Source of the DNA: Anaerolineae bacterium | Lineage (GTDB): Bacteria > Chloroflexota > Anaerolineae > JAADDB01 | NCBI GenBank assembly: GCA_015486845.1 | Contig: WFQU01000129.1 | Span: forward strand, 3,955-67,954 | Reading direction: 5' to 3' | DNA length: 64,000 bases | Part shown: piece after piece, positions 2,105-59,205 of the stretch | Position numbering within the stretch: the first letter of the stretch is position 1 | Layout: each line of letters starts with the position of its first letter | Translations under genes and position numbers: made by a program | Notes under the pieces: generated by a model | The model's input: only the letters and a program-made list of their open reading frames with translations | Database searches by the model: none | Told to the model about the DNA's origin: nothing

Positions 2105-2127
2105 GATCGGCTCCTCGAAATAATATA

Positions 2128-2503
2128 GAACGCTGATATCGCTGATGCATGCTGTTTCGACCGGCGATTAAAATCGCTGCTACGATTGCGAAACCTGCCT
2201 GCGCAGGTTATCTTTTAATCGCCGTAGGGCGATTTCGCAGGTGTTGCCCGCGACTTCCAATTGAACGCTGATATCGCTGATGCACGCTGTTTCGACCGGC
2301 GATTAAAATCGCTGCTACGATTGCGAGACCTGCCTGCGCAGGTTATCTTTCAATCGCCGTAGGGCGATTTCGCAGGTGTTGCCCGCGACTTCCAATTGAA
2401 CGCTGATATCGCTGATGCACGCTGTTTCGACCGGCGATTAAAATCGCTGCTACGATTGCAAAACCTGCCTGCGCAGGTTATCTTTCAATCGCCTTGGAAA
2501 AGG
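2128..2503. repeat. Tandem array of a 135-bp unit (two full copies plus about 0.8 of a third, near-identical) belonging to dispersed repeat family R1
   Basis: The unit gaacgctgatatcgctgatgcaYgctgtttcgaccggcgattaaaatcgctgctacgattgcgaRacctgcctgcgcaggttatctttYaatcgccgtagggcgatttcgcaggtgttgcccgcgacttccaatt recurs at 2128, 2263 and 2398. Each unit contains three short palindromes: gcgattaaaatcgc, acctgcctgcgcaggt and aatcgccGTAGggcgatt. Confidence 0.9.
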
Positions 2504-2509
2504 GTTCCA

Positions 2510-3463
2510 TCACGGCTTGAGCGTCGTGGCCACAATTACTTTATAGTCCAAGGGCTGGCTGATGAGTTTTTTGCTCAGCATCCAGGCGCTCACGTCTTTG
2601 ACCTCAGCCTCCGTAGGCAGTAAATTCACCGGGTAAGCCGGCACCTGATATTCCTTTTCGATGAAACCCGGCACCCGGCCTTTTTTCACCAGCAAAGGTT
2701 TGTATTTGTCGGGATGAGCATTGATCTCCGCGGATGCTTTGTACCACGCTTGCATAAATTTGGCTATATTGTGCGGCTTGGCGGCCAACGATTCAGTTCG
2801 AACAGCGAGCACAGATTGGGAAAACTGCGGATACTGGCTATCGTCCACAATCAGCTTCGCGCCTTTGGCGATAGCGCCGCTGGCCAGCGGCTCCGGCAAA
2901 GTCGCTGCAGCCACTTTGCCTTGCATCAAGAGCTCGAAACGCACCGGAATTTGCGTCACTTCGGTAATGCGAATATCCTTCGATGTCAACCCTTTCGCTT
3001 CCAACAGACGATCGGTAACATATTCGATGATAGTGTGCTGGGAAATAGCCACCGGCACGCCTTTCATAGCAGCCGGGCCGATGATATGGCCGCCGGGCGC
3101 GGCTAATATCCTGAACTGCGGCATTTTAGCCGTAGCGTGCATGAGCGTGCCGACAACTTTCAGCTTAGCTGTATCCTTATCAAACAGCCCCACGCTAATC
3201 AAATCCGTCAAAGCTCCGTCAACTTGCCCGGTCTGCAAAAGCGTGTCGCGTTCCTGGGCGCTTTTGACAAAAATCGCTTGCACTTGCAGTCCCTCGGCAG
3301 CAAAATAACCCTTATCTTGAGCCACGTAATAGGGCAGCGCGTCCATAATGGGCAATAACGCCACTTTAATGGATGTGTCTTCCTGCTTTTGACAAGCCAC
3401 CGTAGCCGGCAACAACATGGCTATAACGAGCAATAACAGCATCGAACGTTTCACGAAATACAC
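2510..3463 (-). CDS. ABC transporter periplasmic substrate-binding lipoprotein, NMT1/SsuA/TauA-like (nitrate/sulfonate/bicarbonate family)
   Basis: Signal peptide plus lipobox (LPATVAC) and an SsuA-like fold pattern. 317 aa. Confidence 0.65.
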   Translation of the reverse strand: MYFVKRSMLLLLVIAMLLPATVACQKQEDTSIKVALLPIMDALPYYVAQDKGYFAAEGLQVQAIFVKSAQERDTLLQTGQVDGALTDLISVGLFDKDTAKLKVVGTLMHATAKMPQFRILAAPGGHIIGPAAMKGVPVAISQHTIIEYVTDRLLEAKGLTSKDIRITEVTQIPVRFELLMQGKVAAATLPEPLASGAIAKGAKLIVDDSQYPQFSQSVLAVRTESLAAKPHNIAKFMQAWYKASAEINAHPDKYKPLLVKKGRVPGFIEKEYQVPAYPVNLLPTEAEVKDVSAWMLSKKLISQPLDYKVIVATTLKP

Positions 3464-4612: not shown

Positions 4613-4739
4613 CTCTCTTCATTGCTCCTTGTCTGCTATCATTTTGCGCTTAGTAAATCATAAATCGGCATAAATGTCCAACACGGAGCATTTCCCCTTT
4701 AGCTATTCAACGCCTGCGAGGAGGTGCACTTCTAAACAG

Positions 4740-5016
4740 GGAGTTATCATGAGCCTATGGCACACCACAGCGGCTGAAAACGAAGCGGCTGGTGTCAAGC
4801 CTTTAGGTGGGTTGGTGGGTCTACCACCGGCTAAAGCCTCGATGCCGGTACGGTGGCGGGGTACGTCAAAGTTGCGTCCGCTGCCAAAAGGCTGCTCAAC
4901 ACTAGCCCCCTTTCAGGGGGCTTCTTGGCGACGTAGCACGGGGATTTGACCCCCGTGCGCTCGGGCGGAGAACGCTGTCGATTAGAAGTTCAACTTCTCG
5001 CAGAAGTTGAACTTCT
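4740..5016 (+). repeat. Composite dispersed repeat made of module S (gagttatcATGagcctRYggcRcaccacagcggMtgaaaa), the 200-bp module R2 and the terminal palindromic hairpin H
   Basis: About 85 to 90 percent identical to the copies at 22210..22400 and 50211..50471, and to the inverted copy at 16014..16200. It ends with GAAGTTCAACTTCTcgcAGAAGTTGAACTTC at 4985..5015. The track ORF 4674..4949 lies inside this repeat and is probably spurious. Confidence 0.85.
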
Positions 5017-5059
5017 TAAAGATACTCTGCGCCTTTGCGCCGCTGCGTCAACTGATTTT

Positions 5060-5150
5060 CAAGGGAGTTATCATGAGCCTACGGCGCACCACAGCGGATG
5101 AAAATTAAGATCAGCGTGCATCAGCGTTAATCTGCGTTCTATTTTCAGAG
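5060..5150 (+). repeat. Second, shorter repeat block: module S followed by leader module L' (gatcagcgtgcatcagcgttaatctgcgttctattttcagaggag)
   Basis: Same motif set as 50527..50590, 25390..25435 and 45308..45335. Confidence 0.8.
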
Positions 5151-5190
5151 GAGATAATTCTTGGATGCTTACCAAGACAGTTTTGGGCCG

Positions 5191-11944: not shown

Positions 11945-14900
11945 TCAATTTTTGGGTAGCTGGAACGCTTGCACCCGGCAAGTAGCGCTATCCACCACTA
12001 CGATCCGGTTGCCGCGCAGGCTGTCGATACCCAACGGCAGGGTGAACAGGTTCGCACCGCCGAACTGGCCATACGGCGTGCCGTCCGCTTCGTAAATCTG
12101 CACGCTCTTCGTCGTCGGGACGGTCACGGCAATCCGATCAGGCGGCAAGACAGCCAAATGCGGCGCATCCACGCTGTTGTGCTGGCCAACAAACCAGTTT
12201 CGCAAGACATTTCCTTGTGCGTCGAAAGCCCAGATTCGACCGGAAGCCGATTCGGCAGCGAAAATCAGCCCGGAAGGGATAACTGCTACGTCCACAGGCT
12301 GCCCCGGCCCAAACAGTTGCTTTTTACCACCGATCTGTGCCAAGGTGTGACCTTGTTGATCCATCTTGACAACCCGCACACCGCCGGTATCAGCCACGTA
12401 CAGATTGCCGCCCGGCCCGGTCGTTAGGCCACGCGGACGATACCATGGGCTTTCCGGCCGCACTATAGCAATGAGCTTGCCGTCCGGCGTGAAATGTTTG
12501 AGCAATTGCAACACGGAATCCAAAACCCAGACTGTGCCATCTGGCGCCACGGCCACATCGAACGGTTCCTCGAACTGATCAGGGCCACTCCCGGCGCTGC
12601 CCCAAGCGGTAATGAACTTCCCATCTGCGTCCAGTTTGACAATGCGACGGTTGCCACTATCGGCAACGTAAATCTGGCCACAGCGACAAACGGCCACCCC
12701 GCGTGGCTTGGCGAATTCGCCGTCACCGCTGCCACAATGGCCCGTTTGCCACAATTTTTGCACGGCCAACGCGGGCAAAGATTGCCGTTTAGCAGGGAAA
12801 CTCGCGGCGGGTTTTCCGGCTGGTGGCGTATTGGGCTGGGGCGTCTGCCCTGATAATGACGCAGGCGGCATTACAGCCAACGGCGGTGGCGGCAAGTGCA
12901 ACGTTTCTGGAATTTGATCGCCAACAATGGGAAACAAATAAGTGAGCGGTATCACTGATTGCCCCGCGCCGGGCGGCGTCCACGACAGCGTCAGCGCCCG
13001 GCCACCGCCGTTCTGGAAATAGTCTAAACGAATTTTGTGGAATCCGGCATCCAGATGAATAGCGCCTGCTTTAAACATGGCACCGTGGCTGCCGCCGTTA
13101 TCCACCACCAGTTTGTCGTCGATCCAGAGCATGGAACCGTCATCAGAACGGGTGGCGAAGCCGTAACGGCCGCTCTTCGGCGCGGCGATGTAGCCCACCC
13201 AGCGGATGCTGAACGGTTCCCGCAAAATATTATTGGGCATGATGAACAGGTCTCGCCGCACCACCGCCGGCATGCCTTGCCAATTATTGTTGGGATAATA
13301 ATAGCCTACCAAGCCATTGTCACCGATATTCAGTGTGTATAGCGCCCCTCGCCCAACCGTTGCCGAGGGCATGCCTTCCCCGGCCCAGGAGAGACGCAAC
13401 CGCCCCGGCGTTCCGCCGCTATAATATGACAGCGTGAACGGGTAAAACCCAGCTACCAAGAATTTTGTAACTTGCTGGTCGCCGTGATTGGCCGCAATGA
13501 GCACGTCCTGGCCCAAATGCAGCATCGTGCGCCCCGAAGTGGACAGTTTAAACGTGTAATGGCCGAACTTCGGCACCAACAGCGTGCCGTGCAATTTCAG
13601 GGTGAAAGCCCCTTGCAGCGGCGCTTTCTGGCTGAAGTCGAAGTCCACGGCTGCTACTTTCTGATGCAACAAAGGTCGGCCAGACGCCTTATCACCGGCG
13701 TAGAAATCTGCGGTTAAACCACCTGCTTCGTGCAAAGCAGCCACTGGCACCCGATAGCTGAGGAAAAGTGTGCCGCCGAAAGGATCACGATGTTCCCGGA
13801 AGGCGCCATCCGGGTAAAGCTGTTGAAGAAGTGGAATGACCTGCCGGTCGGCCGTGTTGAGAATGTAAACGACATCGCCTTGCACTGGCCGGCGCAGTGG
13901 CACATCGCGCGTCAAATCCAACGATTGGACCTTTTTTTGCCCGATAAGCTTCACGGCGGAGTGATGGCTGTAATCAGGATCCACTAAAATAGTTGTAGTC
14001 GAGGGAAGGCCATGGATAAACTGGCCGATGGCGGATTCTTGCGGGCTGAACGCTAAGACGACGCTGGGGTTATGGACCTGAACGACAAAATAGTCGTGTA
14101 AACCGGCTTTAGCGCCAAACAGGGCAATGAGCAGTAATAACGCGTAGAGCCAGCCCCGCCCTGTTCTCCCCCAAGCGTGTTGCCAGGCGTCGGCGCCTTG
14201 CTGCAAAATCTCTCCGGCCAACAGAAACGCTAACGGCAAGATCATGACTACCCGCCGGGCATTAGGTGCTTCATGCACTACAGTGAAAATGGCCGTGCTG
14301 ATGCCTACCAGGAACCAGGTCGTGTAGAGAAAGCCCAGCGGCTTCCAAAAATAGCGCAGTGCGTAGAAAAGTCCCACTAGCGCCAGGGCGCCGACGATGG
14401 GGCCCAACATGGGTGCGCCGGGCAGGTTGTTCAGCGCGGCTAAGTCGCCCCGGAAATTGAACATTAACAATACTTTGCGGGCATTATCCACCACCGGCTG
14501 GTAGCTGCCGGCCCGGGCGACATCGCCGAGCACGGAAATATGTTGGGTGCGGCTGAGGAAGATATGCCAATGCCGGCTGACATACGCCAAGAGCGGCAAA
14601 CTTCCCAACGCCGCGGAGAGGGTGAAAAGCACCATCCCTTGCAAATCAGTGCGCCAGCGTGACGATTTTTGCACGCCCAGTCGGATTAACCAGTAAATAA
14701 AATAAAGCATGATCCAGGCCGGTACAACCCGAAAAGCCGTGTAGCTATTCAGTCCCAGGGCCAACATCAACCCACCCCACAGCCAGTGGCTGCGTTTGCC
14801 GCTTTCCTGTGCTTTGAGGATGAAATAGACCAACAACGAAAGGAAGAGCGGCACCAAGATCAGTTCATACACGATGCGGCTGATGGTGATGTGCCAGCGG

Positions 14901-15655
14901 GCCACGGCAAACAGCGCTGTGATGGTCAACGCCACCGGTGGCTTGAAGCGCAGCCGGGCTAACGGGTAAAAAGCAGCCATAGTGAGCGTGCCTACGACCG
15001 CCGAGAGCAAGCGCATAGAGACCACGGAGACACCGAAAAGCTGGAAAAAGAGCGCAATCAGATAGGTGAATAGTGTCGCCTGCCCTTCATTCGTTTCGGC
15101 ATAAGGAATGTAAGGGGCACCATGTAGCCATTTGAGTGCATCCAGGCCATTGTTGCCTTCGTCGGACTGACAACCAAAGGGAAAGGAAGCGATATGCCAA
15201 ACGCGCACCACAAACGCTACCATGATGATTAAAAACAGAACGAGCAATTCCCAACGATGCCTGCGGAACCAGGTTTTGCACCGCTCTAAGAACGGCCGCC
15301 GACCAGGCAACACGCCTTCGAAATAACCACTGATCAAGAAGATAAATATACCGATCAACCATAACCAGAATGGCCAGCCGTCGTAGCGATTCGCCCGTTG
15401 CCAAAAGCCGAAGAGGGCACTAAGGCCCAAAAGCAGGCCCGCGCCGGCTAACAATTCTCCTAAGTGCCACCAGGGACGTGCCGCTATCGCCCCATCGGGC
15501 CAAGAGGGTAGCGGTTTAGCTTGCCAAAGGAAAATAACAATGGCCATCGCGAAAAGGATAAAGCCATCCAGGGGGATGGGTTTGGGCACATGCCAGAAAT
15601 GTTCTGCCCACAGAGCAATCAGCACAGCGATGGAAAGCCAGGTAAAACGTTTCAT
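11945..15655 (-). CDS. Large multidomain protein of 1236 aa. The N-terminal half is a polytopic GT-C-fold glycosyltransferase (ArnT/PMT-like, GT39/GT83 type, with a DE motif in the first loop). The C-terminal half has two PA14 domains, a proline-rich linker and a six-bladed NHL-repeat beta-propeller.
   Basis: The true start is MKRFTWLSIAVLIALW at 15655, with an AGGGAG ribosome-binding site supplied by a repeat module. There are more than ten predicted transmembrane segments, and the loop motif FPFGCQSDEGNNGLDALKW fits the DE loop. Two PA14-like segments are present (...FTLKLHGTLLVPKFGHYTFKLSTSGRTMLHL... and ...FSIRWVGYIAAPKSGRYGFATRSDDGSMLWIDDKLVVDNGG...). NHL repeats follow (...PRGVAVCRCGQIYVADSGNRRIVKLDADGKFI... 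repeated). Confidence 0.75.
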   Translation of the reverse strand: MKRFTWLSIAVLIALWAEHFWHVPKPIPLDGFILFAMAIVIFLWQAKPLPSWPDGAIAARPWWHLGELLAGAGLLLGLSALFGFWQRANRYDGWPFWLWLIGIFIFLISGYFEGVLPGRRPFLERCKTWFRRHRWELLVLFLIIMVAFVVRVWHIASFPFGCQSDEGNNGLDALKWLHGAPYIPYAETNEGQATLFTYLIALFFQLFGVSVVSMRLLSAVVGTLTMAAFYPLARLRFKPPVALTITALFAVARWHITISRIVYELILVPLFLSLLVYFILKAQESGKRSHWLWGGLMLALGLNSYTAFRVVPAWIMLYFIYWLIRLGVQKSSRWRTDLQGMVLFTLSAALGSLPLLAYVSRHWHIFLSRTQHISVLGDVARAGSYQPVVDNARKVLLMFNFRGDLAALNNLPGAPMLGPIVGALALVGLFYALRYFWKPLGFLYTTWFLVGISTAIFTVVHEAPNARRVVMILPLAFLLAGEILQQGADAWQHAWGRTGRGWLYALLLLIALFGAKAGLHDYFVVQVHNPSVVLAFSPQESAIGQFIHGLPSTTTILVDPDYSHHSAVKLIGQKKVQSLDLTRDVPLRRPVQGDVVYILNTADRQVIPLLQQLYPDGAFREHRDPFGGTLFLSYRVPVAALHEAGGLTADFYAGDKASGRPLLHQKVAAVDFDFSQKAPLQGAFTLKLHGTLLVPKFGHYTFKLSTSGRTMLHLGQDVLIAANHGDQQVTKFLVAGFYPFTLSYYSGGTPGRLRLSWAGEGMPSATVGRGALYTLNIGDNGLVGYYYPNNNWQGMPAVVRRDLFIMPNNILREPFSIRWVGYIAAPKSGRYGFATRSDDGSMLWIDDKLVVDNGGSHGAMFKAGAIHLDAGFHKIRLDYFQNGGGRALTLSWTPPGAGQSVIPLTYLFPIVGDQIPETLHLPPPPLAVMPPASLSGQTPQPNTPPAGKPAASFPAKRQSLPALAVQKLWQTGHCGSGDGEFAKPRGVAVCRCGQIYVADSGNRRIVKLDADGKFITAWGSAGSGPDQFEEPFDVAVAPDGTVWVLDSVLQLLKHFTPDGKLIAIVRPESPWYRPRGLTTGPGGNLYVADTGGVRVVKMDQQGHTLAQIGGKKQLFGPGQPVDVAVIPSGLIFAAESASGRIWAFDAQGNVLRNWFVGQHNSVDAPHLAVLPPDRIAVTVPTTKSVQIYEADGTPYGQFGGANLFTLPLGIDSLRGNRIVVVDSATCRVQAFQLPKN

Positions 15656-15690
15656 GCGCACACTCCCTTGAAAATAAACTTCTCTGGAGG

Positions 15691-15725: not shown

Positions 15726-16013
15726 CCGTCTTTGAAAAAAAGACCTCTCCCCTGGCTTGCCGCCCAAAGGGGCGGCAAGCCTCCCCCTCCCCGTATCGGG
15801 GAGGGGGAAAAGCTAAGCGCAGCGCCTTCAAATTAGTCGTGTCATTGCGAGCGAAGCGACAGTGTGATCCTCTTTTTGGTCAAGCAATCTCCAATGATAG
15901 TGAGAGAGAGTGCCACGGCCCTGCCGGGCCTCGCAATGACAAACTTCTCTGAAAATAAGTTGATGCAGCAGCGCCAAGGCACAGGGCGTCTAAAAAAATC
16001 AGGCCTCCTTTTA

Positions 16014-16200
16014 GAGGTTCAACTTCTTCAAGAAGTTGAACCTCTCCGGCGTTTTCCGCCCGAGCGCACGGGGGTCAAATCCCCGTGCTACGTCGCCAAG
16101 AAGCCCCCTGAAAGGGGGCTGGCGTTGAGCAGCCCGTTTGCAGCGGATGCTGCCTTGACGTACCCCGCCGCCGCACCGGAATCGGAACCGCATATCCTCA
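16014..16200 (-). repeat. Inverted-orientation partial copy of the composite repeat (hairpin H plus module R2)
   Basis: GAGGTTCAACTTCTtcaAGAAGTTGAACCTC at 16014..16044, followed by the reverse complement of the R2 core (ccgcccgagcgcacgggggtcaaatccccgtgctacgtcgccaagaagccccctgaaagggggct...). Confidence 0.8.
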
Positions 16201-21870: not shown

Positions 21871-22055
21871 GATCGATTCCGCAGGACAGCGACCGGCTGG
21901 TCTAAGCAGCGACCAATGACCTGTTTAATTCGTTTGACCATCTTAGCTGGGGGAACGCTTTTCGGAAGAGTTGGAGGGGAACCGTACGGTTCCCCTGCTG
22001 GGAGCTCGAGGGTAGAGCCCTCGAAAAAGAAAAAGGGAGGCGAGATCATCTTTGA

Positions 22056-22400
22056 CTAGAAGTTCAACTTCTTCAAGAAGTTGAACTTCTAGAACGGCAA
22101 CATCTGCAAAATCGCCCTACGGCGATTAGCATGCAACCTGCGTAGGCAAGTTTCGCAGCTGTGGCAGCGATTTCTAATCGCAGGGCGAAGCAGCCTGTGT
22201 TGACCTACGTCCCATTCCGGTGGGCCGGCCCCTTGCCGCCGCGGCGGCGGGGTACGTCGGTCCGCTGCCAAGAGGCTGCTCAACACCAGCCCCCTTTTAG
22301 GGGGCTTCTTGGCGACGTAGTACGGGGATTTGACCCCCGTGCGCTCGGGCGGAGAACGCTGTCGATTGGAAGTTCAACTTCTCGCAGAAGTTGAACTTCT
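22056..22400. repeat. Repeat cluster made of hairpin H (22056..22093), an inverted R1-family copy (22089..22200), an R2 copy (22210..22365) and a second hairpin H (22369..22399)
   Basis: The sequence ctaGAAGTTCAACTTCTtcaAGAAGTTGAACTTCtag is followed by acatctgcaaaatcgccctacggcgatt..., then the R2 core and GAAGTTCAACTTCTcgcAGAAGTTGAACTTC. The track ORFs 22089..22286, 22161..22394 and 22280..22494 lie inside the repeats. Confidence 0.85.
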
Positions 22401-22514
22401 TTAAAAAATTGACCACGCATGTTGTTGTTGCCTGGAACGTTGTCGGCGTTGGGGATAGTTTTGCGCCAATCAGCCATGACATAACGGAGTCCATTTTTGA
22501 CTATTGTTTTTTTA

Positions 22515-22566
22515 TCTGCGTGCGCAGCCTGCGTTAATCTGCGTCCTATTTTTATTTTCAGAGGAG
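22515..22566 (+). repeat. Leader module L (ttatctgcgtgcgcagcctgcgttaatctgcgtcctatttttattttcagaggag), positioned 75 nt upstream of the fabD start
   Basis: Near-identical blocks occur at 50715..50782 (where it supplies the secG Shine-Dalgarno) and at 59135..59203. Confidence 0.8.
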
Positions 22567-22641
22567 ATTGATTTTAATCTCTGCACCTTAGCGGCTCCGC
22601 GTCGAGCTTTTAGTTCCGGCCTGTCCCGGTTAGGAGAATTC

Positions 22642-23592
22642 ATGAAAAAAGCAGCTTTTATTTTTCCAGGCCAGGGCTCACAATTCGTGGGCATGGGGAA
22701 ATCATTAGCCGAAAAATATCCGTTGGCCCGGCAAACTTTCGCCGAGGCGGACGAATTATTAGGCTTTCCGCTGAGCGAACTCTGTTTTGACGGCCCGGCG
22801 GAGCAATTGAACGATACCATCAACACCCAACCTGCCCTTTTCGTGGTCAGCATGGCCGCGTTTCGAGTCTTGCAAGCGGAACTGCCGGCATGGCAACCAT
22901 CAGCCGTGGCCGGGCACAGTTTAGGCGAGTACTCAGCCTTGACGGCAGCCGGCGCGCTTTCTTTTGCCGATGGCCTCCGTTTGGTACGAGAACGCGGCCG
23001 GCTGATGAAACAAGCCGGCGAAGTGTCCCCCGGCGGCATGGCCGCGGTCTTAGGACTGACAGCGGAACAAGTGGCAGCAATCTGCCGGGAAGCCAGCGAC
23101 GGGCAAACAGCGGTACAAATTGCCAATGACAATTGTCCCGGGCAGATCGTGATTTCCGGCCACAAAGAGGCGGTAGAACGGGCTTTGCCGCTTGCTCAGG
23201 CAATGGGCGCACGCCGGGTCGTGCCGTTAGCCGTGAGCATCGCTGCCCATTCGCCATTAATGGCGCCCATCGCCGCTGATTTTGCGGCTGCTATCGAGGC
23301 AACGCCGCTACACTTACCCACACTGCCGGTGGTGGCCAACGCCAGCGCCGCGCCGGTGCACAATCTAACCGAAATGAAGCAGCTTCTGGCCGCCCAATTA
23401 ACCTCGCAGGTGCGTTGGACTACATCGGTGCGCTATTTGCTAAATGAGGGCATCGACACGTTCATCGAAGTTGGCCCGGGCAACGTTTTAATCGGCCTGG
23501 TTAAACGCATTGACCGCAAAACAGAACGTTTAGCCATCGGCACAGCCGCAGAAATAGAGAAACATAAAGCGAAAACGGAGAAACAAGCATGA
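22642..23592 (+). CDS. fabD: Malonyl CoA-ACP transacylase
   Basis: The start MKKAAFIFPGQGSQ lies after an AGGAG ribosome-binding site. The GHSLGE active-site motif is present. Confidence 0.9.
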   Translation: MKKAAFIFPGQGSQFVGMGKSLAEKYPLARQTFAEADELLGFPLSELCFDGPAEQLNDTINTQPALFVVSMAAFRVLQAELPAWQPSAVAGHSLGEYSALTAAGALSFADGLRLVRERGRLMKQAGEVSPGGMAAVLGLTAEQVAAICREASDGQTAVQIANDNCPGQIVISGHKEAVERALPLAQAMGARRVVPLAVSIAAHSPLMAPIAADFAAAIEATPLHLPTLPVVANASAAPVHNLTEMKQLLAAQLTSQVRWTTSVRYLLNEGIDTFIEVGPGNVLIGLVKRIDRKTERLAIGTAAEIEKHKAKTEKQA

Positions 23593-25212: not shown

Positions 25213-25284
25213 CGTGTTGCCGGAGGCTACATAACGGCTCAGCCCAGGTCAAATGGAACGCTGATGGGCCCAGCGACAAAAGTC

Positions 25285-25435
25285 ACGGCAACAATCTGCA
25301 AAATCGCCCTACGGCGATTAGCTTGCAGCCTGCGCAGGCAGGTTTCGCAGCTGTGGCAGCGATTTCTAATCGCCGGACAAGGCAGACTGCGTTAATCAGC
25401 GTTCTATTTTCCAGAGCATTCTATTTTCAAAGGAG
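25285..25435. repeat. Inverted R1-family copy (caacaatctgcaaaatcgccctacggcgattagcttgcagcctgcgcaggcaggtttcgcagctgtggcagcgatttctaatcgcc...) fused to leader module L' (gcgttaatcagcgttctattttccagagcattctattttcaaaggag), which ends 10 nt before the next start codon
   Basis: Direct comparison with 2128..2503 (reverse complement) and with 22089..22200. Confidence 0.8.
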
Positions 25436-25444
25436 ATTGTTTCA

Positions 25445-26767
25445 ATGGAGAAACAGCGGGTTTTAATTATGGGTGCTGCGGGACGTGATTTCCACAATTT
25501 CAACGTTTATCTTCGCGGCAACGAACATTATGAAGTGGTCGCCTTCACGGCGACACAAATTCCCAACATCGAGGGACGAGTTTATCCCTCCGAATTGGCC
25601 GGTCCCGGCTATTCAGAAGGAATTCCCATTTATCCGGAGGCGGAATTGGACCGCCTCATCAAAGAACTACACGTGCAGCAAGTCCTCTTCTCCTATTCTG
25701 ATGTGCCTTACGAATATGTGATGGGCCGGGCAGCCATTGTCCAGGCAGCCGGTGCAGATTTTCGTCTACTAGGGCCAAATAACACTATGTTGAATTCCAG
25801 CAAGCCGGTCATTGCCATTTGTGCCGTGCGCACGGGTTGCGGCAAAAGCCAAACCACCCGGCGCGTTGCTGAAATTCTCCGGCGCATAGGCAAGAAGGTC
25901 GTGGCAGTGCGGCATCCCATGCCCTACGGCAACCTGGTCGAACAGGCCGTGCAGCGGTTTGCCACTTACGAAGACTTAGATCGCTATCATTGCACCATTG
26001 AAGAGCGTGAAGAATACGAGCCGCATTTAGACCGCGGTGTGATTGTTTACGCCGGCGTGGACTACGAAGCGATTTTGCGTCAAGCAGAGCAGGAAGCAGA
26101 TGTAATCCTCTGGGATGGCGGCAATAATGATCTGCCGTTTTATCGTCCCAATTTGCACATCGTCGTGGTAGATCCACTGCGGCCGGGGCACGAGTTGCGC
26201 TATTACCCCGGCGAAACGAACCTACGCATGGCGGATATTGTCGTGGTAAACAAAGTGGACAGCGCCGACGAAGCAGCGGTTCGCCAGGTTATAGATAATG
26301 CCCGCCAGGTCAATCCGACAGCCACGATTCTGACCGCTGCATCGCCGATTTTTGTGGAAAACCCGGACGCCATCGCAGGCAAAAAGGTGCTGGTCATCGA
26401 GGATGGCCCGACGCTGACCCATGGTAGCATGTCCATTGGCGCCGGCTGGGTAGCTGCCCGCCGTTACGGTGCCGCCGAGATCGTCGACCCGCGTCCTTAC
26501 GCCGTTGGCTCCATCAAAGCAACGTACGCGAAATACCCCAACACCGGTAATGTGTTGCCGGCCATGGGCTATGGCGAAGAAATGATCCACGAACTGGAAG
26601 AAACGGTCAATGCTGCGCCGGTGGATTTGGTCATCGTGGGCACGCCCATCGACCTGCGCCGGGTGATGCATATCAAACATCCCGCGGATCGGGTGCGCTA
26701 TGAACTGCAAGTCATCGGCCGGCCCACACTGGAAGACATTTTGCAGCGCTGGCTGGAGAAGAAGTAG
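25445..26767 (+). CDS. P-loop NTPase resembling cyclic 2,3-diphosphoglycerate synthetase (cDPGS/DUF1611-related family). The assignment is tentative.
   Basis: 440 aa with an N-terminal Rossmann-like region (RVLIMGAAGRDFHNFN...EHYEVVAF) and a Walker A-like motif (AVRTGCGKSQTT). The family was recalled from memory and not verified. Confidence 0.4.
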   Translation: MEKQRVLIMGAAGRDFHNFNVYLRGNEHYEVVAFTATQIPNIEGRVYPSELAGPGYSEGIPIYPEAELDRLIKELHVQQVLFSYSDVPYEYVMGRAAIVQAAGADFRLLGPNNTMLNSSKPVIAICAVRTGCGKSQTTRRVAEILRRIGKKVVAVRHPMPYGNLVEQAVQRFATYEDLDRYHCTIEEREEYEPHLDRGVIVYAGVDYEAILRQAEQEADVILWDGGNNDLPFYRPNLHIVVVDPLRPGHELRYYPGETNLRMADIVVVNKVDSADEAAVRQVIDNARQVNPTATILTAASPIFVENPDAIAGKKVLVIEDGPTLTHGSMSIGAGWVAARRYGAAEIVDPRPYAVGSIKATYAKYPNTGNVLPAMGYGEEMIHELEETVNAAPVDLVIVGTPIDLRRVMHIKHPADRVRYELQVIGRPTLEDILQRWLEKK

Positions 26768-26999
26768 GAACAGCCGCGGCAAGACAAGTGGCTCAGAGTA
26801 AACATTCAAGCCACACCGTGGTTTGGTGTAAGCTATTCAAATCCTCAACATGAGGACGCTGAGGACCGCAGATAAAGCAGAAAAGATCAGCGAAAATCAG
26901 CGTCATCAGCGTTCCATTTGATCTTAGCTGAGCACGAACGATCCTGTTTCTAAATATGTCCGTTCAATCAATATCTCACAAGCAAAAAGGAGGTTATTC

Positions 27000-29727: not shown

Positions 29728-30894
29728 TTATACAACGTTAAACTCTGCCGTTAAATCTTCCCCAGTCAAAAATCGATCATAACGAAATGGATCGATACCC
29801 ACCGTGTGCGCCTGTCCATCCAAAATTTCCTCGGCCATGAGTAGACCGATAACTGGCCCGTGCATAAAGCCGTGGCCGCTAAATCCCGCCGCGGTGTAAA
29901 ATCCAGCCACGCCGGGAATCGCTCCCATAATGGCTTGGGCGTCCGGTGTGACTTCGTACAGTCCGGCCCAATGCGCCAGCAAGCCGGCTTGTTCCAACAA
30001 CGGTAGCCGGTAAATCGCCTCTTCCATGTGCCGCAACTCCCAATCTTCGTCCACTTTGAGCTTGAAGCCGGGGGTTTCGTCGTGATTCGATTTGCCCGTC
30101 AAAATTCCTTTCCCTTCCGGGTGGAAATAAAGTGCCTCTTTGAAGAAAAGCACGAAAGGAAAGTCGGGGCGCAAGGAGGGCAACGGCGTTGTGACCACAA
30201 TTTGTCGCCGGATGGGTTGGATCGGCAACTGGACCTCCACCATGGCAGCAATTTGTGGTGCCCAGGCGCCACAAGCATTGACGACAATTGGTGTGGCAAT
30301 GCGGCCCTGATTCGTTTGCACGGCAGTGATAGCGCCTTGATTTCGCTCAATGCCGGTGACTTCCACATTGTTGAGCAGTTTTGCGCCCAGCCGCCGGGCA
30401 TTCTTCGCGTAGCCCGCCACCACGCTGGACGGATCGGCCAGGCCATCGCCGTCATAAAATGTGCCGGCCAACGCCCCATCCACATTGACCTGAGGCACTA
30501 ACGCTTTAATCTCTGCCGGCTCCAGCCACTGTGTCATGATGCCATGGCGATGCTGTAAACGTACATTCTCTCGAAATGGCTCGATATCGGCTGGATCAGT
30601 AAGCACAAAAAGATAACCGACCCAACGCAAGTCGATCTCCTGATCCATCTCTTCCGCAAACCGATCCAACATCTGCAAACTGACTTTAGAAAGCTCAATA
30701 TTGATAGCGGAAGAAAACTGATGGCGGATACCACCAGCACATTGCCCAGTGGACATGCTACCTAAAAAGGGTTCTTTCTCCAATAGAACGACATCTTTCA
30801 CACCCCGCTGCGCTAAGTGATAAGCAATGCTGCACCCCATCACGCCACCGCCGATCACAACGACATCTGCTGTCTTGGGCAATTCGGAACTCAT
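29728..30894 (-). CDS. FAD-dependent oxidoreductase (DadA/glycine-oxidase/sarcosine-oxidase-beta family)
   Basis: Start MSSELPKTADVVVIGGGVMGCSIAYHLA (GxGxxG). Its start overlaps the stop of the upstream ornithine cyclodeaminase-like gene by 4 nt. Confidence 0.8.
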   Translation of the reverse strand: MSSELPKTADVVVIGGGVMGCSIAYHLAQRGVKDVVLLEKEPFLGSMSTGQCAGGIRHQFSSAINIELSKVSLQMLDRFAEEMDQEIDLRWVGYLFVLTDPADIEPFRENVRLQHRHGIMTQWLEPAEIKALVPQVNVDGALAGTFYDGDGLADPSSVVAGYAKNARRLGAKLLNNVEVTGIERNQGAITAVQTNQGRIATPIVVNACGAWAPQIAAMVEVQLPIQPIRRQIVVTTPLPSLRPDFPFVLFFKEALYFHPEGKGILTGKSNHDETPGFKLKVDEDWELRHMEEAIYRLPLLEQAGLLAHWAGLYEVTPDAQAIMGAIPGVAGFYTAAGFSGHGFMHGPVIGLLMAEEILDGQAHTVGIDPFRYDRFLTGEDLTAEFNVV

Positions 30895-31868: not shown

Positions 31869-32190
31869 TTCTCGCCTCCTTCGAAAATAGAACCCTGATG
31901 TGCGCTGATCCTATTCATTCGCAGCGCTGTGCCGACCTACGTTGCCGTTTTAGTGACCACACAGGTAGTCGCTTGGCGGTGAGCGCAGCGAGCCGTCCTT
32001 TCGGCATGGCTTTAGCCGACATGCCCGGGGCCAAAAGCCGCCGGGCTACATCAAGTTCAAGCCCGCTCAAGCGGGCTGCTTCACCCCAGCCCCCTTCAGG
32101 AGGCACCTCATCATGTAGCACGGAGCTTTGAGCTCCGTGTGCGCCCCGAAAAACAGCTTCATAGAACTGCGTAGTTTGACGCTGACAATT

Positions 32191-44765: not shown

Positions 44766-45363
44766 CTCTATTTTATTGAGACATGGGCACAAAAGTATAG
44801 CATAGCAAAACGTTTTCTCAAAAGCGTAGTTGCTAATAACCTCGGGCTATTGGTATAGCCAGTCGTGACTCATCCGAAAACAGGCTCACCGCGGAATACG
44901 CAACGTGCGCCGCGGTCAAATTAGTGTGATTTTAGCAACTATTTGCTTCCGAAACTGTAACTGCTCGTTTCTGATAAAACAGTGGCGCCGGCACGGGCCG
45001 GCGGCCGGCCTGTGCCGGCACGCAGACAGGCGCACCATAGCGGCTGAAAACGCCCCCTATCCCCCAACCTTGGGGGGAGCAACATGCCCCAGCCCTCCGA
45101 AAAAGGGTCTTGGCTACGCCGGATCTGGTTCGTTGCGGGCAGCACTCCCTCTCGCCACGCTGCGGTCTGCCGCTATCCTGTTGGCAACGAGCGCATAGCC
45201 CGTGTTGTCGTCGTGCGTTGGTATGCGCTTAATCGTGGCTAATCGTATGAGCCGGGTCTGATAACATGAATTTTCGTGTTGCTGGCGTAATATATTTGAG
45301 ATCAGCGTTGATCAGCGTTCTATTTTCAAATGAAACAAAATTGCTGGTCGCAAGCAGCTTTGT

Positions 45364-45392
45364 TTGACCAACACAGACTGATAGCGTATAAT
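45364..45392 (+). promoter_or_regulatory. Strong sigma-70-type promoter (TTGACC, 17 nt spacer, TATAAT)
   Basis: -35 at 45364..45369 and -10 at 45387..45392. It lies immediately downstream of a leader-type repeat module (45308..45335). Confidence 0.5.
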
Positions 45393-48454: not shown

Positions 48455-48556
48455 GTTATCATAAGCCCGACAAGGTGGAGAAGTTCAACTTCTGTCAGAA
48501 GTTGAACTTCTCCACCGGAAAGTTTTCTTGACGCTTTGCGTCGGCTATTTTCAAGG
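48455..48556 (+). repeat. Repeat block made of a partial module S, hairpin H (48479..48510) and leader module T (ttttcttgacgctttgcgtcggctattttcaagggacagc), ending 6 nt before the birA ATG
   Basis: GAAGTTCAACTTCTgtcAGAAGTTGAACTTC. The T module also occurs at 52955..53020 upstream of the PBP gene. Confidence 0.8.
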
Positions 48557-48562
48557 GACAGC

Positions 48563-49342
48563 ATGGAAGAACGAATACCGCCGTTGACGGACGCCATTGC
48601 TTGGCGTTGGCGACGGCTGGACAAAGTTACATCCACGCAGGATATTGTCCGGCGTGAGGCGGAAGCCGGCGCGGCAGCGGGGCTAATTTTGTGTGCTAAT
48701 TGGCAATCCGCCGGCCGGGGGCGTTTGCAGCGCCGTTGGGAAAGCGCCCCCGGCGCCGCGCTGCTCTGTTCACTGTTGGTGCGGCCAATAGCGTTGCCCG
48801 CTCAGCAGGCCGCCCATTTGACCATGATCACAGCGTTAGCACTGGCGGATGCCGTTGCCGAGACGGCCGGCGTGCAGCCGGATATCAAATGGCCCAACGA
48901 TCTATACCTGCAAGGACGCAAATTAGCCGGCATCCTGACAGAAACGCAGATAGACGCTAATAATGTGCAATGGGCAGTCATCGGCTTCGGGCTGAACTTG
49001 CGGCGCAGTTTTCCAGAAGGGCATCCCTTGGCCCGGCAGAGTATTGCTTTAGCCGAAGTCTGTGGGGCCGTGCCGGAACGAGAAACTTTGTTGCGGGCCG
49101 TCGTGTTGCATTTAGCCGCATCTTGTCGCCGCCGGCGCGCGGGCTGGTCTCCGCACAGAGCATGGCAGCAGCGATTGCTGACACTGGGCCGCGAGGTAAC
49201 CGTCACAGCGGGGGCTAAACGATGGCACGGCACCGCCGTGGGAACGACCTCCGCCGGCGCGCTGCAACTGCGTCTGCAAAATGGGTCGTTACGAGAAATA
49301 TGGGCAGGTGAGGTCACGCTAAGTGCCTCGATAGGAGATTAA
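48563..49342 (+). CDS. birA: Biotin-[acetyl-CoA-carboxylase] ligase (catalytic and C-terminal domains, no N-terminal HTH)
   Basis: BPL motif (QSAGRGRLQRRWESAPGAALLCSL), KWPND. Confidence 0.8.
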   Translation: MEERIPPLTDAIAWRWRRLDKVTSTQDIVRREAEAGAAAGLILCANWQSAGRGRLQRRWESAPGAALLCSLLVRPIALPAQQAAHLTMITALALADAVAETAGVQPDIKWPNDLYLQGRKLAGILTETQIDANNVQWAVIGFGLNLRRSFPEGHPLARQSIALAEVCGAVPERETLLRAVVLHLAASCRRRRAGWSPHRAWQQRLLTLGREVTVTAGAKRWHGTAVGTTSAGALQLRLQNGSLREIWAGEVTLSASIGD

Positions 49343-50028: not shown

Positions 50029-50210
50029 GGACCTTTGCGGGTAACGAGATAGCAAGTTTTTTTGACGACGTGCTAATTCTATGTGGGTAGTGCTTGCAAG
50101 GGTACCCTTTCTCTGTGTATAATGTTCTTTCACGCGTTAAGCGGATACGTAGACACGGCGATTTATTTACAGCCGGCTTAAGCGAGGAGAAACGGTCGTT
50201 ATTGAGGAAA

Positions 50211-50782
50211 TTGTCACAAGCCCGCCACAGCGGCTGAAAAACTGCGGCTGGTGTAAGCCTTTAGGTGGGTTGGTGAGTCTATTACCGACTAAAGCTTCGA
50301 TTCCGGTACGGCGGCGGGGTACGTCAAGGTAGCGTCTGTTGCCAAGAGGCGACTCAACACCAGCCCCCTTTCTGGTGGCTTCTTGGCGACGTAGCACGGG
50401 CCTTTGACCTCCGTGCGCTTGGGCAGGGAACGCCGTCGATTAAAGTTCAACTTTTTGAAAAAGTTGAACTTCTTAAAGGAGACCTGATTTTGAAGGGACT
50501 GTTTCCGTATTGCCTGCGTAATATATTTGAGATCAGCGTTAATCAGCGTTCTATTTTCAAGGGAGTTATCATGGGCCTGCGGCACACCACAGCGGATGAA
50601 AACCTATGGCTGGACTCGAGCCTTTAGGCGGTTTTGTAGCGTTACCCCCGGCTAAAGCCTCGAGTCCGGCGCAATGGGAGCTATTTTCAGGGGAGAATCT
50701 GTTACTAATTTCTTGACCATTGTTTTTTATCTGCGTGCGCAGCCTGCGTTGATCTGCGTCCCATTTTTATTTTCAGAGGAGG
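50211..50782 (+). repeat. Largest repeat cluster in the window. It contains module S with the R2 copy (50211..50440), hairpin H (50443..50471), a second S with leader L' block (50510..50610), and leader module L (50715..50782), whose AGGAGG is the secG Shine-Dalgarno sequence.
   Basis: Direct alignment with the copies at 4740..5150 and 22160..22566. The upstream part of track ORF 50674..51012 is repeat sequence. Confidence 0.85.
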
Positions 50783-50790
50783 TTTTGAGA

Positions 50791-51012
50791 TTGACAACAT
50801 ATCTTTATATCATTCAAATGATCTTAGCCGTTGCTTTAATCATCATCGTCATGGTAGGATCGAAAGGTTCCGGTGTAGGTAGTGTATTCGGTGGCGATTC
50901 GGCCGTTTATAACACCCGTCGCGGGGTAGACAAGCTTTTGTTTCAAATCACCATTGGTCTCTCTTTCGTTTTCTTCCTGATATCGCTGCTCTCGGTGATG
51001 ATCGGCGGCTAA
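50791..51012 (+). CDS. secG: Preprotein translocase subunit SecG (TTG start)
   Basis: TTG start 8 nt after AGGAGG. 73 aa with two transmembrane helices and a glycine-rich loop (GSKGSGVGSVFGG), typical of SecG. Confidence 0.65.
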   Translation: MTTYLYIIQMILAVALIIIVMVGSKGSGVGSVFGGDSAVYNTRRGVDKLLFQITIGLSFVFFLISLLSVMIGG

Positions 51013-52683: not shown

Positions 52684-52701
52684 ACACGGTAACATTGGTG
52701 A

Positions 52702-52733
52702 GACGTTCAACTTCTCAAAGAAGTTGAACGTCT
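52702..52733. repeat. Hairpin H variant with compensatory outer-stem changes (GACGTTCAACTTCTcaaAGAAGTTGAACGTC)
   Basis: Same invariant core as the other copies. The outer base pair has switched from A:T to C:G. Confidence 0.85.
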
Positions 52734-52954
52734 TCACCGGAAAGCTCCGTGCTACGTTAATGGGAAGCCCCCTTCAGGGGGCTGAAGTCACGCAGCCCGC
52801 TTCAGCGGGCTTGGACTTGCTGTAGCCCGGCGGCTTTAGCCCCGGGCAGGTTTGCGGTGCGGCTTCAATTGCGGTTGTGATCAGCGGCAATGAATTAGGT
52901 GCCCCTGATGCGGCAGATTTAATCCTGAGACGGCAGGTCACGGACCTGCCTGGA

Positions 52955-53020
52955 ACGCGGCAAAAAGCTTTTTTGACGCTCGGCGTCTTTGCGGCTCAGC
53001 GTCGGCTATTTGCAAAGGGA
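52955..53020 (+). repeat. Leader module T (ttttttgacgctcggcgtctttgcggctcagcgtcggctatttgcaaagggag), ending 13 nt before the PBP1A start
   Basis: Homologous to 48521..48556. It supplies the GGGAG Shine-Dalgarno sequence. Confidence 0.75.
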
Positions 53021-58704: not shown

Positions 58705-59205
58705 AGACTACGGCCTGCCTTGTGCGCTGCGCGCGGACAGGCACACCATAGCGGATGAAAGTCGGCCGATAGCCGGTAGGCGTTCGCCGTTAGCAAATAT
58801 ATAAGCGGACGTTGCTGGAGCATTAATCGTGGGGAGCTGAAGCCGCACCGAAAGTGCCTGCAGCCAGGCGACCACCTACGTGGTCGCGACGACGCCAACG
58901 CACAAGAGCGAGACATTCAACTTCTGAGAGAAATTGAATGTCTGCACTGCGGTTGAAACCGCGGCACAGGAAACCGGCAAAGCAGTTCGCCCGTGCGTAG
59001 TGCAGTTTTGGCTGCTGGCAGCTGGAGCTTAGCCTTTTGGCAGCCTGGAAGCGTCGACACCGGCTAAAGCCTCGACTCCAGTGCTGGGGAAAGTGTCGCA
59101 CTTTTTTCGCGACGACATCTTCGGGATCGTTTTTTGACCGTTGTTTTTTTATCTGCGTGCGCAGCCTGCGTTTATCTGCGTCCCATTTCATTTTCAAGGG
59201 AGGGC
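58705..59205. repeat. Repeat cluster made of an S-like module (58705..58760), hairpin H variant GACATTCAACTTCTgagAGAAATTGAATGTC (58912..58942) and leader module L (59135..59203)
   Basis: Alignment with the other copies. It marks the boundary of an islet that looks lower in GC. Confidence 0.8.

Follow-up and report, generated by a model that had tools for sequence, protein, structure and literature searches.

Mosaics of repetitive extragenic palindromes (REP) and bacterial interspersed mosaic elements (BIME), and miniature inverted-repeat transposable elements (MITEs) such as the Neisseria Correia elements, are fast-evolving, hairpin-forming extragenic palindromes that are mosaic in structure and often intercistronic. 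Other dispersed repeats lie before unrelated genes and supply their translation initiation region together with some of the 5' untranslated region: REP2 (CREN), which fronts 14 co-regulated genes in Neisseria meningitidis, and an inverted repeat (IR) of Borrelia plasmids (PMC3184786). Direct repeats of TAACTGA just upstream of start codons have been proposed as regulator sites (PMC4679880). We analyzed 64,000 nt of DNA from an Anaerolineae bacterium (Chloroflexota; assembly GCA_015486845.1, contig WFQU01000129.1, positions 3,955 to 67,954; hereafter the window), in which a short leader module ending in a Shine-Dalgarno (SD) sequence recurs before unrelated genes. A preliminary description had offered two readings of this module: coordinated post-transcriptional control of essential genes, or repeats that persist through the ribosome-binding site (RBS) they carry or respect. 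The second fits our data. We assign a probability of roughly 0.58 to the module being a MITE/REP-like mosaic repeat with rapid turnover whose junction with genes is at the RBS, and not a conserved control switch. The case follows the principle of REP2, the TAACTGA repeats and mycobacterial interspersed repetitive units (MIRUs) with a different architecture, being the arm of a hairpin made up of 10-nt units that brings neither promoter nor ATG and is found in several phyla.

The enrichment of the module in the window is real. Its core, CTATTTTCARRGGAG, occurs 14 times with at most two mismatches against an expectation of 0.34, a count reached by none of 100 shuffles, and the unit ATCWGCGTT has 13 exact matches against 1.0 expected. 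Thirteen of the 14 core matches are intergenic; the other lies inside a moeA-like gene and is probably a chance match. With start codons taken as those concordant with gene calls and with the protein lengths of relatives, 3-9 nt separate five of the 13 intergenic cores from a start, namely those of a giant PMT_2/PA14/NHL gene, a cDPGS-like gene, an ornithine-cyclodeaminase (OCD)-family gene, birA and secG, and weaker copies precede PBP1A and PGI. The distances given in the preliminary description (75 nt before fabD, 8 nt before secG, 9 nt before the cDPGS-like gene and 7 nt before the giant gene) are correct, and Pfam upheld its gene names (FabD, SecG, BirA-type ligase, PBP1A and the PMT_2/PA14/NHL giant), with only a weak cobW hit for the cDPGS-like gene. 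Its list of fronted genes overlooked the OCD-family and PGI copies, and the PBP1A leader that it included has a core with three mismatches and a spacer of 12-13 nt. The view that modules sit directly on start codons holds for the five cores named above but not for the remaining eight (5053, 5139, 22552, 45320, 50551, 50681, 59188 and 15944(-)), which front no gene; the pair 5053/5139 faces the 3' end of a convergent lipoate-ligase gene.

Cores nonetheless lie at starts far more often than random intergenic placement within the window would produce (p = 1.2e-5), and by our own tally the modules are aimed at a downstream gene start in 9 of the 10 module-bearing intergenic regions of the window. 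The module-associated SD sequence is itself ordinary: an SD match of at least 4 nt precedes 43 of the 49 window genes, and AAGGAG also occurs often where no module is present.

Heads of at least three types are attached to the 15-nt core. An iteron head of two or three ATCWGCGTT units is found in the copies at 5139, 25421, 45320 and 50551, with degenerate versions at 31890(-) and ~2155(-); a long head (TTGAC, a T-run and ATCTGCGTGCGCAGCCTGCGTTNATCTGCGTCC) in those at 22552, 50767 and 59188; and a hairpin head, TTGACGCTTTGCGTCGG before CTATTT, in the birA and PBP1A copies, which have no ATCWGCGTT repeats. The earlier definition of the core as two to three such repeats thus describes some copies but neither the long-headed ones nor those of birA and PBP1A. 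Unrelated genes, essential ones among them, do have repeat-derived sequence up to or into the SD sequence; the shared part is only ~15-60 nt long. Copies resemble each other over 30-60 nt upstream of the core; in view of this similarity and of the gene-less copies, we rejected convergent selection for an optimal initiation region without common descent. The copy before fabD (22497-22566) matches the secG copy (50723-50784; family D7) with 95% identity across 62 nt and supplies no RBS to fabD. In the cDPGS-like copy AAAGGAG is followed after 9 nt by ATG, and in the giant-gene copy GGGAG is followed after 7 nt by ATG.

As RNA, the leader module is not structured. The region 22495-22650 shows no excess structure against shuffles (z = +0.40), and an alignment of eight leader copies gives a consensus fold of -2.6 kcal/mol with no compensatory pairs and no conserved structure. 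No Rfam family matched the repeat in the window (gathering threshold) or in three perfect-hairpin loci (E-value threshold).

Outside the window, the module belongs to a much wider hairpin family. A scan of one genome per species with the 24-mer CWGCGTTNATCWGCGTYCYATTTT, for which we estimate ~0.3 chance matches, returned more than 82 loci, mostly in Anaerolineae and other Chloroflexota metagenome-assembled genomes (MAGs); among the matches listed are also Planctomycetota, Acidobacteriota, Bacteroidota and cyanobacteria. Phylum labels of MAG contigs were taken from record titles, and gene calls in these foreign loci are crude open reading frame (ORF) calls. Some short-contig matches may reflect mis-binning; long contigs with the 24-mer come from Bacteroidales, Melioribacter, Planctomycetota and an Anabaena isolate. 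At many loci an inverted partner lies 10-20 nt upstream, giving a long imperfect hairpin of 10-nt units (-35 to -66 kcal/mol; typically AATAGGACGCAGATGAACGCAGATAAACGCAGAT, loop, ATCTGCGTTCATCTGCGTCCTATTTT). The repeat unit is ACGCWGAT/ATCWGCGT, with a left arm ..RGRACGCWGAT.. and a right arm ..ATCWGCGTYC that ends in CYATTTT, the ends being closed by TGAAAATAG/CTATTTTCA. Complete copies are inverted arrays, and most leader copies in the window consist of the right arm only. The leader module is thus the right arm of this iteron hairpin family, mostly as a half-element. Full-text literature searches with the repeat sequences, and on palindromic repeats between genes of Anaerolineae, returned nothing relevant, and the hairpin of 10-nt units appears to be undescribed.

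Among the 82 matches listed, 71 copies are intergenic and in most the similarity between loci ends directly past ATTTT. Our crude analysis of these matches found no orientation bias relative to neighboring genes, every arrangement being present, and the hairpins often lie at the 3' ends of genes in either orientation. An all-against-all BLAST of the ORFs in 545 kb around the 82 copies detected no shared neighbor protein family; one ORF cluster occurs in 10 of the loci. No transposase was found directly behind the arms or among the window ORFs scanned for domains. Viral contigs gave a single match to the pattern, with no sign that phages are the main carriers. On plasmid NZ_OY725914 of Bacteroides finegoldii, a cultured gut bacterium, an unannotated hairpin, GCGCAGATGAACACAGATGAACGCAAATTATCGCAGAT...ATCTTTGCGTAAATCTGCGTTAATCTGCGC, directly follows the aspD stop codon (30116-30206; L203 1490-1580), and a Sphaerospermopsis plasmid carries the left arm alone. 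The groundwater Chloroflexi MAG JACRLB01 has at least seven near-identical copies (loci L022, L028, L035-L037, L053 and L058), in which a longer repeat, bounded by outer inverted ends CTA(G/C)CCACCTGACA...TGTCAGGTGGGTAG, surrounds the hairpin. Similar outer ends, TGTACGGTAGAGAA, occur in MAG VFKN01, so that one core is combined with different outer modules in different genomes.

Complete hairpins of this kind could act as partial terminators or mRNA stabilizers, with read-through transcripts translated via the adjoining SD sequence and the window modules as decayed halves. Several features are consistent with this. Complete units have a GC-rich stem base (GGACGC/GCGTCC) with UAUUUU after it and AAAAUA before it; gene-adjacent ones mostly fill the spacers of co-directional genes, reading stop, hairpin, ATTTT, NAGAGGAG, start; the Bacteroides copy and the window copy 26852-26921 lie just past stop codons; and the birA head, TTGACGCTTTGCGTCGG plus CTATTTT, was detected by a terminator scan. 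A GC-rich stem with a U-tract is thus predicted in complete hairpins and in the birA head but not in half-element copies. Most window copies lack the left arm, which makes the stem impossible, and the region upstream of fabD folds no better than shuffles. The conserved 8-nt unit would also go unexplained, as terminators need no conserved sequence. We therefore regard termination or processing as an unlikely account of the leader module, even if it suits the complete units better than the halves.

In some Chloroflexota lineages the arm continues, at a constant 4-nt offset, into a purine-rich SD tail. In the eleven gene-adjacent copies from the CWGCGTTNATCWGCGTYCYATTTT scan, a pattern that demanded no SD sequence, ATTTT and GGAG are most often 4 nt apart (TAGA, CAGA or AAGA), as in five of them, from at least three genomes. 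The genes behind these copies include OsmC-like, glutamine-synthetase-like, epimerase and RidA-like ones and others, with no transposase. A second scan, of metagenomes with the pattern GCGTYCYATTT(N0-6)TCARRGGAG, returned 108 loci, among which 17 carried iterons and ~92 (~85%) were iteron-free chance matches that served as a control. An ORF starts 4-13 nt past GGAG in 13/17 iteron-bearing copies versus 20/92 iteron-free ones (Fisher p = 2.4e-5), and the functions of the genes fronted by metagenome copies are unrelated. Complete metagenome units mostly take up the spacer of a co-directional gene pair, their order often being mini-ORF module, TGAAAATAGRACGC, arms, GCGTYCTATTTTCA, GAGGAG, N5-9 and gene ATG.

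CAGAG is retained in gene-less copies, often together with a complete GGAG at an unchanged offset (5139, 22552, 50681, 59188; L086 9393), and the tails CAGAGAAG, CAAATGAA and CAGAGTGT resemble point-mutated forms. In every filled/empty pair, homology is lost at most a few nucleotides 5' of GGAG, and alleles without the module have an SD sequence too. We read the clade consensus as running into the purine tract and the joint between repeat and gene as lying inside CARR|GGAG, as expected if the SD sequence is a recombination microhomology or a preferred target.

Comparison with relatives that conserve the gene order, from one lineage at 77-86% protein identity (JGI/ENA contigs L085, L088-L090, L093, L205 and L206) and another at 59-76% (GCA_027008045.1/WFQT01; L086, L087 and L091), indicates rapid turnover of the modules. 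At the cDPGS-like gene all three relatives are module-free, with AAATAGGGGAGG or TTAAAGGAGG before the common spacer TTGTTTCA and ATG. For the OCD-family gene, a 99% strain retains the module, while an 85% relative lacks it (ACTGCCCGAAGGAGATAGGCGATG) yet has an identical CGAAGGAG. Before birA, the 77% relative L085 has the upstream terminator and then GGGAGTTAACATG only, the window has ~100 extra nt (palindrome module, small hairpin and core) between GGGAGTTATCAT and GGAAGAACGA, and a 59% relative has a different mosaic ending in GGGGGCTATTTTCAGGGGAG. The giant gene is preceded in both the window and L088 by a leader module before identical GGAGTGTGCGCATG, but the subtypes differ, that of L088 being long-headed. 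In the 59% relative L086, secG follows a diverged version (AATTAGTGGAATTCGTGGTTGTATTTTTAAGGGAGG) with AATTNGTGG units; PDH E1-beta has iterons and CTATTTTATAAGGAG in L088, and no module in the window before the common AAGGAGCATGATCATG. The 770 nt of mosaic repeats that the window has upstream of fabD correspond in relatives to a PHP-domain gene or to a spacer of 75 nt. The PHP-domain gene lies between the PDH E3 gene and fabD (L088 9075-10000) and is replaced by the mosaic at 21871-22641.

The set of fronted genes therefore differs between close relatives. Spacers and start codons are gene-specific and common to module-free relatives. Copies within a genome resemble each other more than orthologous spacers do between genomes: intergenic regions are unalignable with relatives at 86% protein identity, though in-genome copies are up to 95% identical. 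At filled versus empty sites the upstream sequence is replaced, with no clean insertion and no consistent target-site duplication.

This turnover bears directly on the proposal that the repeats and the U-rich stretch form a cis-regulatory leader, read by one RNA- or DNA-binding protein or small RNA that co-regulates translation or transcription. The strikingly conserved unit across lineages and phyla suggests a conserved binding partner, the distance to the SD sequence is fixed, metagenome copies are strongly in excess right before start codons, and REP2 (PMC3184786) and the TAACTGA repeats (PMC4679880) are precedents. However, the module is not retained at orthologues of relatives (fabD and the cDPGS-like and OCD-family genes in those at 85-86%, birA in that at 77%), relatives carry it at genes that are module-free here, such as PDH E1-beta, 8 of the 13 window copies front no gene, and the genes that are fronted are functionally unrelated. 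The units also occur as palindromes, in both orientations and at gene 3' ends, and the leader copies lack conserved structure or covariation, with the birA and PBP1A heads lacking the repeats altogether. Coordinated post-transcriptional control, as the preliminary description had put it, is therefore improbable.

We favor instead the mosaic-repeat interpretation. In its full form the element is a long, imperfect, dispersed non-coding hairpin with the appearance of an intrinsic terminator for both directions. Most copies of this Anaerolineae lineage are half-elements that have the right arm only and are combined with further repeat modules into mosaics; behind the arm, at a constant 4-nt offset, comes a purine-rich tail (CARR-GGAG). 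Gain, loss and exchange of copies are fast. At the joint, which falls at the SD sequence, everything upstream is replaced while the gene's spacer and start codon are retained; the repeat therefore either brings a working SD sequence or lands exactly on that of the gene, and the U-rich stretch directly before it may aid ribosome binding. The repeat would spread by transposition or by recombination with the SD sequence as microhomology, and the module would be transcribed, its U-rich/SD end supporting translation. Insertions before genes would presumably be harmless and so accumulate there, essential genes included, and surviving copies may later be truncated and shuffled into mosaics.

Several observations weigh against this interpretation. 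In the window alone, cores at starts (5/13) do not significantly exceed other intergenic GGAG sequences (17/83, p = 0.14); the enrichment 5' of starts implied by the preliminary description is borne out by the iteron-bearing metagenome copies but not by this comparison. Nor is the SD sequence always repeat-borne, because the odd 'CG' of the OCD-family leader in CTATTTTCGAAGGAG is the native sequence of the module-free relative; there, the repeat probably ends at CTATTTT and the SD sequence is native. Mobility is read only from distribution and turnover, since no target-site duplication, autonomous parent element or mobilizing enzyme was found. Finally, the 8-nt unit is very widely conserved across phyla, which a purely selfish repeat does not explain and which hints at a conserved binding partner. 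One could imagine that the iteron hairpin, with or without the mini-ORF of the short (S) module, and its U-tract/SD tail form an intercistronic cassette (stop codons, terminator-like hairpin and RBS) that spreads horizontally across phyla, a putative protein recognizing ACGCWGAT/ATCWGCGT and mobilizing the cassette and/or tuning the termination and translation of dozens of genes. We consider this a long shot.

Like REP2, the module places an RBS directly upstream of ORFs (GGAG 3-9 nt before five starts, and 13/17 metagenome copies). REP2, however, has its own promoter, its own ATG, two internal stem-loops and co-regulated genes, whereas here each gene contributes its own start codon and spacer, the head is made of 10-nt repeats from a hairpin arm, no module was found to supply an ATG or a promoter (the promoter test being weak for Chloroflexota), and the comparison with relatives lends co-regulation no support. 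A portable promoter in the manner of REP2 would have TATTTT as its -10 element and the repeats or the TTGAC head as its -35 or activator site. YATTTT does retain the key -10 positions A2 and T6, the long-head and hairpin-head types begin with TTGAC, and the REP2 and Borrelia IR repeats carry promoters (PMC3184786). But no module has a -35/-10 pair at 16-18 nt, and a sigma-70 scan misses all of them, again a weak test as Chloroflexota rules are poorly known; the best sigma-70-like sites lie outside the modules (45364-45392 and 50094-50123). TTGAC-to-TATTTT spacings are 12, 28 or >40 nt, and a transcription start ~7 nt past TATTTT would fall inside the SD sequence and remove it from the mRNA. 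We thus hold a promoter function to be very unlikely.

MIRUs are also short intergenic repeats, oriented with genes, lying in co-directional spacers, present or absent among relatives and mild in the effect of insertion (PMC12548453, PMC3184786). The window copies are likewise intergenic and oriented with neighboring genes, and the three 135-nt units arrayed in tandem at 2125-2529 (97% and 74% identity), in which a 115-nt module is joined to an iteron pair in the manner of a variable-number tandem repeat, recall MIRU arrays. In MIRUs an internal ORF overlaps the stop and start codons of the neighbors (coupling at -4 nt), whereas that of the S module is not conserved, stops short of the iterons and overlaps no gene, continuity being provided by the SD sequence. 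With the TAACTGA repeats of Beggiatoaceae, cyanobacteria and Bacteroidetes, the present repeat shares 2-6 copies just upstream of the starts of unrelated, partly essential genes and a patchy distribution across phyla (PMC4679880); the unit is 7 nt there and 10 nt here, and the present repeats also form hairpin arms.

The likeness to REP/BIME sequences and MITEs is that of extragenic palindromes combined in mosaics with other short modules: leader and S modules, a 33-nt palindrome and 188-nt and 115-nt modules occur in varied orders in extragenic space. Arms of 10-nt units and a unit shared across phyla are unusual for REPs and MITEs, and the leader arms have no GTAG-type head. As in MITEs, copies are small, non-coding, numerous and present or absent among relatives, and complete ones have terminal inverted repeats (TGAAAATAG/CTATTTTCA; window 26852-26921); no related autonomous insertion sequence was found around the 82 listed copies or in the window ORFs scanned. 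As a structured cis-regulatory RNA the module has neither an Rfam family nor covariation.

A final alternative centers on the S module, in which mini-ORF, hairpin, U-tract and SD sequence would form a translation-sensing leader-peptide attenuator copied before many genes. Metagenome units do read SD-N5-6-ATGAGC..(7-11 codons)..stop, hairpin, CCTATTTT, SD, gene, with the stop codon at the foot of the hairpin, and their mini-ORF module (SD-N5-6-ATGAGC...ACACCATRAA) is the counterpart of the S module. However, the mini-ORF frame is not conserved, two copies have ATA for ATG, L021 and L086 have a 25-nt insert, and the peptides differ; many hairpin units lack the S module, and no alternative antiterminator pairing was found. 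This is the least probable of the explanations we considered, and for the S module itself the unconserved start codon and frame led us to reject a leader peptide. For the same reasons (ATA for ATG in some copies, a frame-shifting 25-nt insert elsewhere), the short S-module ORFs that the preliminary description had counted among the fronted genes are not upheld as genes. The S core CACACCACAGCGGATGAAAA is conserved as nucleotides, not as peptide, in all three related genomes, and metagenome units have it in the diverged form ACACCATRAATGAAAAT. The tail of the module, rich in A, is the complement of CTATTTTCA in the leader core, and the module contains GGAUGA, recalling CsrA-type sites. GGAG sequences flanking combined S and leader units were considered as a duplication, an idea dropped in view of hairpin-only units without the left GGAG.

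If the mosaic-repeat interpretation is correct, the RBS regions of essential genes (secG, birA and PBP1A) in this group can be rebuilt by repeat turnover while the gene is retained, and the rare REP2 and MIRU cases extend to Chloroflexota. Common 'leader motifs' in MAGs would then not necessarily denote regulons, and gene callers may run ORFs through modules, as at 22504 in frame with fabD. The presence of the hairpin in cultured Bacteroides and cyanobacteria makes its binding partner and function testable in tractable organisms.

Table 1. Repeat copies, modules and fronted genes in the window, with copies in related contigs where given.
Feature	Position	Strand	Remarks
Phosphoglucose isomerase (PGI) leader: leader variant (ATCAGCGATATCAGCGTTCTATATTATTTCGAGGAGCCGATC, ~2155-2105) before ATG 2104	2105..2529	-	D3; three tandem 135-nt units precede
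Leader core (5053-5067) fused to S module (GGGAGTTATCATGAGCCTACGGCGCACCACAGCGGATGAAAATTAA)	5053..5108	+	D9; mini-ORF frame not conserved
Leader module, iteron head (ATCAGCGTG CATCAGCGTT AATCTGCGTT + CTATTTTCAGAGGAG)	5110..5153	+	Gene-less; faces convergent lipoate-ligase 3' end
PMT_2/PA14/NHL giant gene	11945-15655	-	Pfam
Leader core (TTATTTTCAAGGGAG)	15663..15677	-	7 nt before giant-gene ATG 15655
Decayed leader core (TTATTTTCAGAGAAG)	15944..15958	-	Gene-less
Leader module, long head (TTGACT, T-run, ATCTGCGTGCGCAGCCTGCGTTAATCTGCGTCC, TATTTT + TATTTTCAGAGGAG)	22497..22566	+	Ends 75 nt before fabD ATG
fabD's own SD AGGAG (22632-22636) and ATG (22642-22644)	22632..22644	+	
FabD gene	22642-23592	+	Pfam
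Left arm and flank of iteron element (..TCAAATGGAACGCTGATG)	25237..25266	+	I22
Leader module, iteron head, duplicated core (CTATTTTCCAGAGCATT + CTATTTTCAAAGGAG)	25385..25435	+	cDPGS-like ATG 9 nt on, 25445
cDPGS-like gene	25445-26767	+	Weak Pfam cobW hit only
Complete iteron hairpin (GAGGACGCTGAGGACCGCAGAT..loop..ATCAGCGAAAATCAGCGTCATCAGCGTTCCATTTGA)	26852..26921	+	85 nt past cDPGS-like stop; fold -28 kcal/mol
Leader module, degenerate iteron head (GGATCAGCGCACATCAGGGTT + CTATTTTCGAAGGAG)	31876..31912	-	Core 31890-31876; OCD-family GTG 31868
Leader module, iteron head, decayed tail (CAAATGAA)	45301..45334	+	D10; gene-less; upstream of sigma-70-like site 45364-45392
Hairpin-head variant TTGACGCTTTGCGTCGG (7-bp stem, terminator-like) + CTATTTTCAAGGGAC	48528..48559	+	birA ATG 48563
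BirA-type ligase gene	48563-49342	+	Pfam
Leader module, iteron head (50532-50565) fused to S module (to 50602)	50532..50602	+	D5, D9
Isolated leader core (CTATTTTCAGGGGAG)	50681..50695	+	Gene-less
Leader module, long head	50713..50782	+	AGGAGG 50777-50782, 8 nt before secG TTG 50791
SecG gene, TTG start	50791-51012	+	Pfam
Degenerate hairpin-head variant (TTGACGCTCGGCGTC..GCGGCTCAGCGTCGG + CTATTTGCAAAGGGA)	52973..53020	+	D11; PBP1A ATG 53034
PBP1A gene	53034-56165	+	Pfam
Leader module, long head	59145..59202	+	D7, 79%; gene-less
S module	4731-4780, 5055-5108, 50553-50602, 45026-45050, 50216-50240, 58737-58761		L085 10945-10990; L086 7590-7665, 9259-9300
33-nt palindrome	4984-5016, 16013-16045, 22058-22090, 22369-22400, 48479-48511, 50443-50473, 52701-52733, 58911-58947		L085 11175-11210
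~190-nt module, several GC-rich hairpins	4797-4984, 22181-22368, 50255-50442		Inverted 16049-16184; related 32025-32111 / 52760-52846

The arms at 25237-25266 and 25385-25410 belong to one window element and enclose another repeat module. The stretches 25237-25266 and 26904-26933 form a 30-nt inverted repeat (90% complementary) around the cDPGS-like gene and its leader module. They are probably two separate elements and not the ends of a cargo transposon, because the cDPGS-like gene sits at the same place in relatives. From TTG 22504 the fabD reading frame runs without a stop through the upstream module (22504-23592), a possible 46-residue extension of FabD.

Other repeats share the mosaics with the leader module. 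The 33-nt near-perfect palindrome, AGAAGTTCAACTTCT-N3-AGAAGTTGAACTTCT, is present in ~8-10 copies, always within repeat mosaics, and may serve as an operator-like site or represent a further hairpin module. A hairpin of the ~190-nt module, GTAGCACGGGGATTTGACCCCCGTGC, is REP-like, with GTAG and a palindrome, which suggests a system of the REP-associated tyrosine transposase (RAYT) type elsewhere in the genome. A tRNA scan of the window found none. On a Candidatus Loosdrechtia contig (L016 2945-3041) we noted a near-threshold c-di-GMP-I-GGC riboswitch (56.7 bits against a gathering threshold of 59), unrelated to the repeat.

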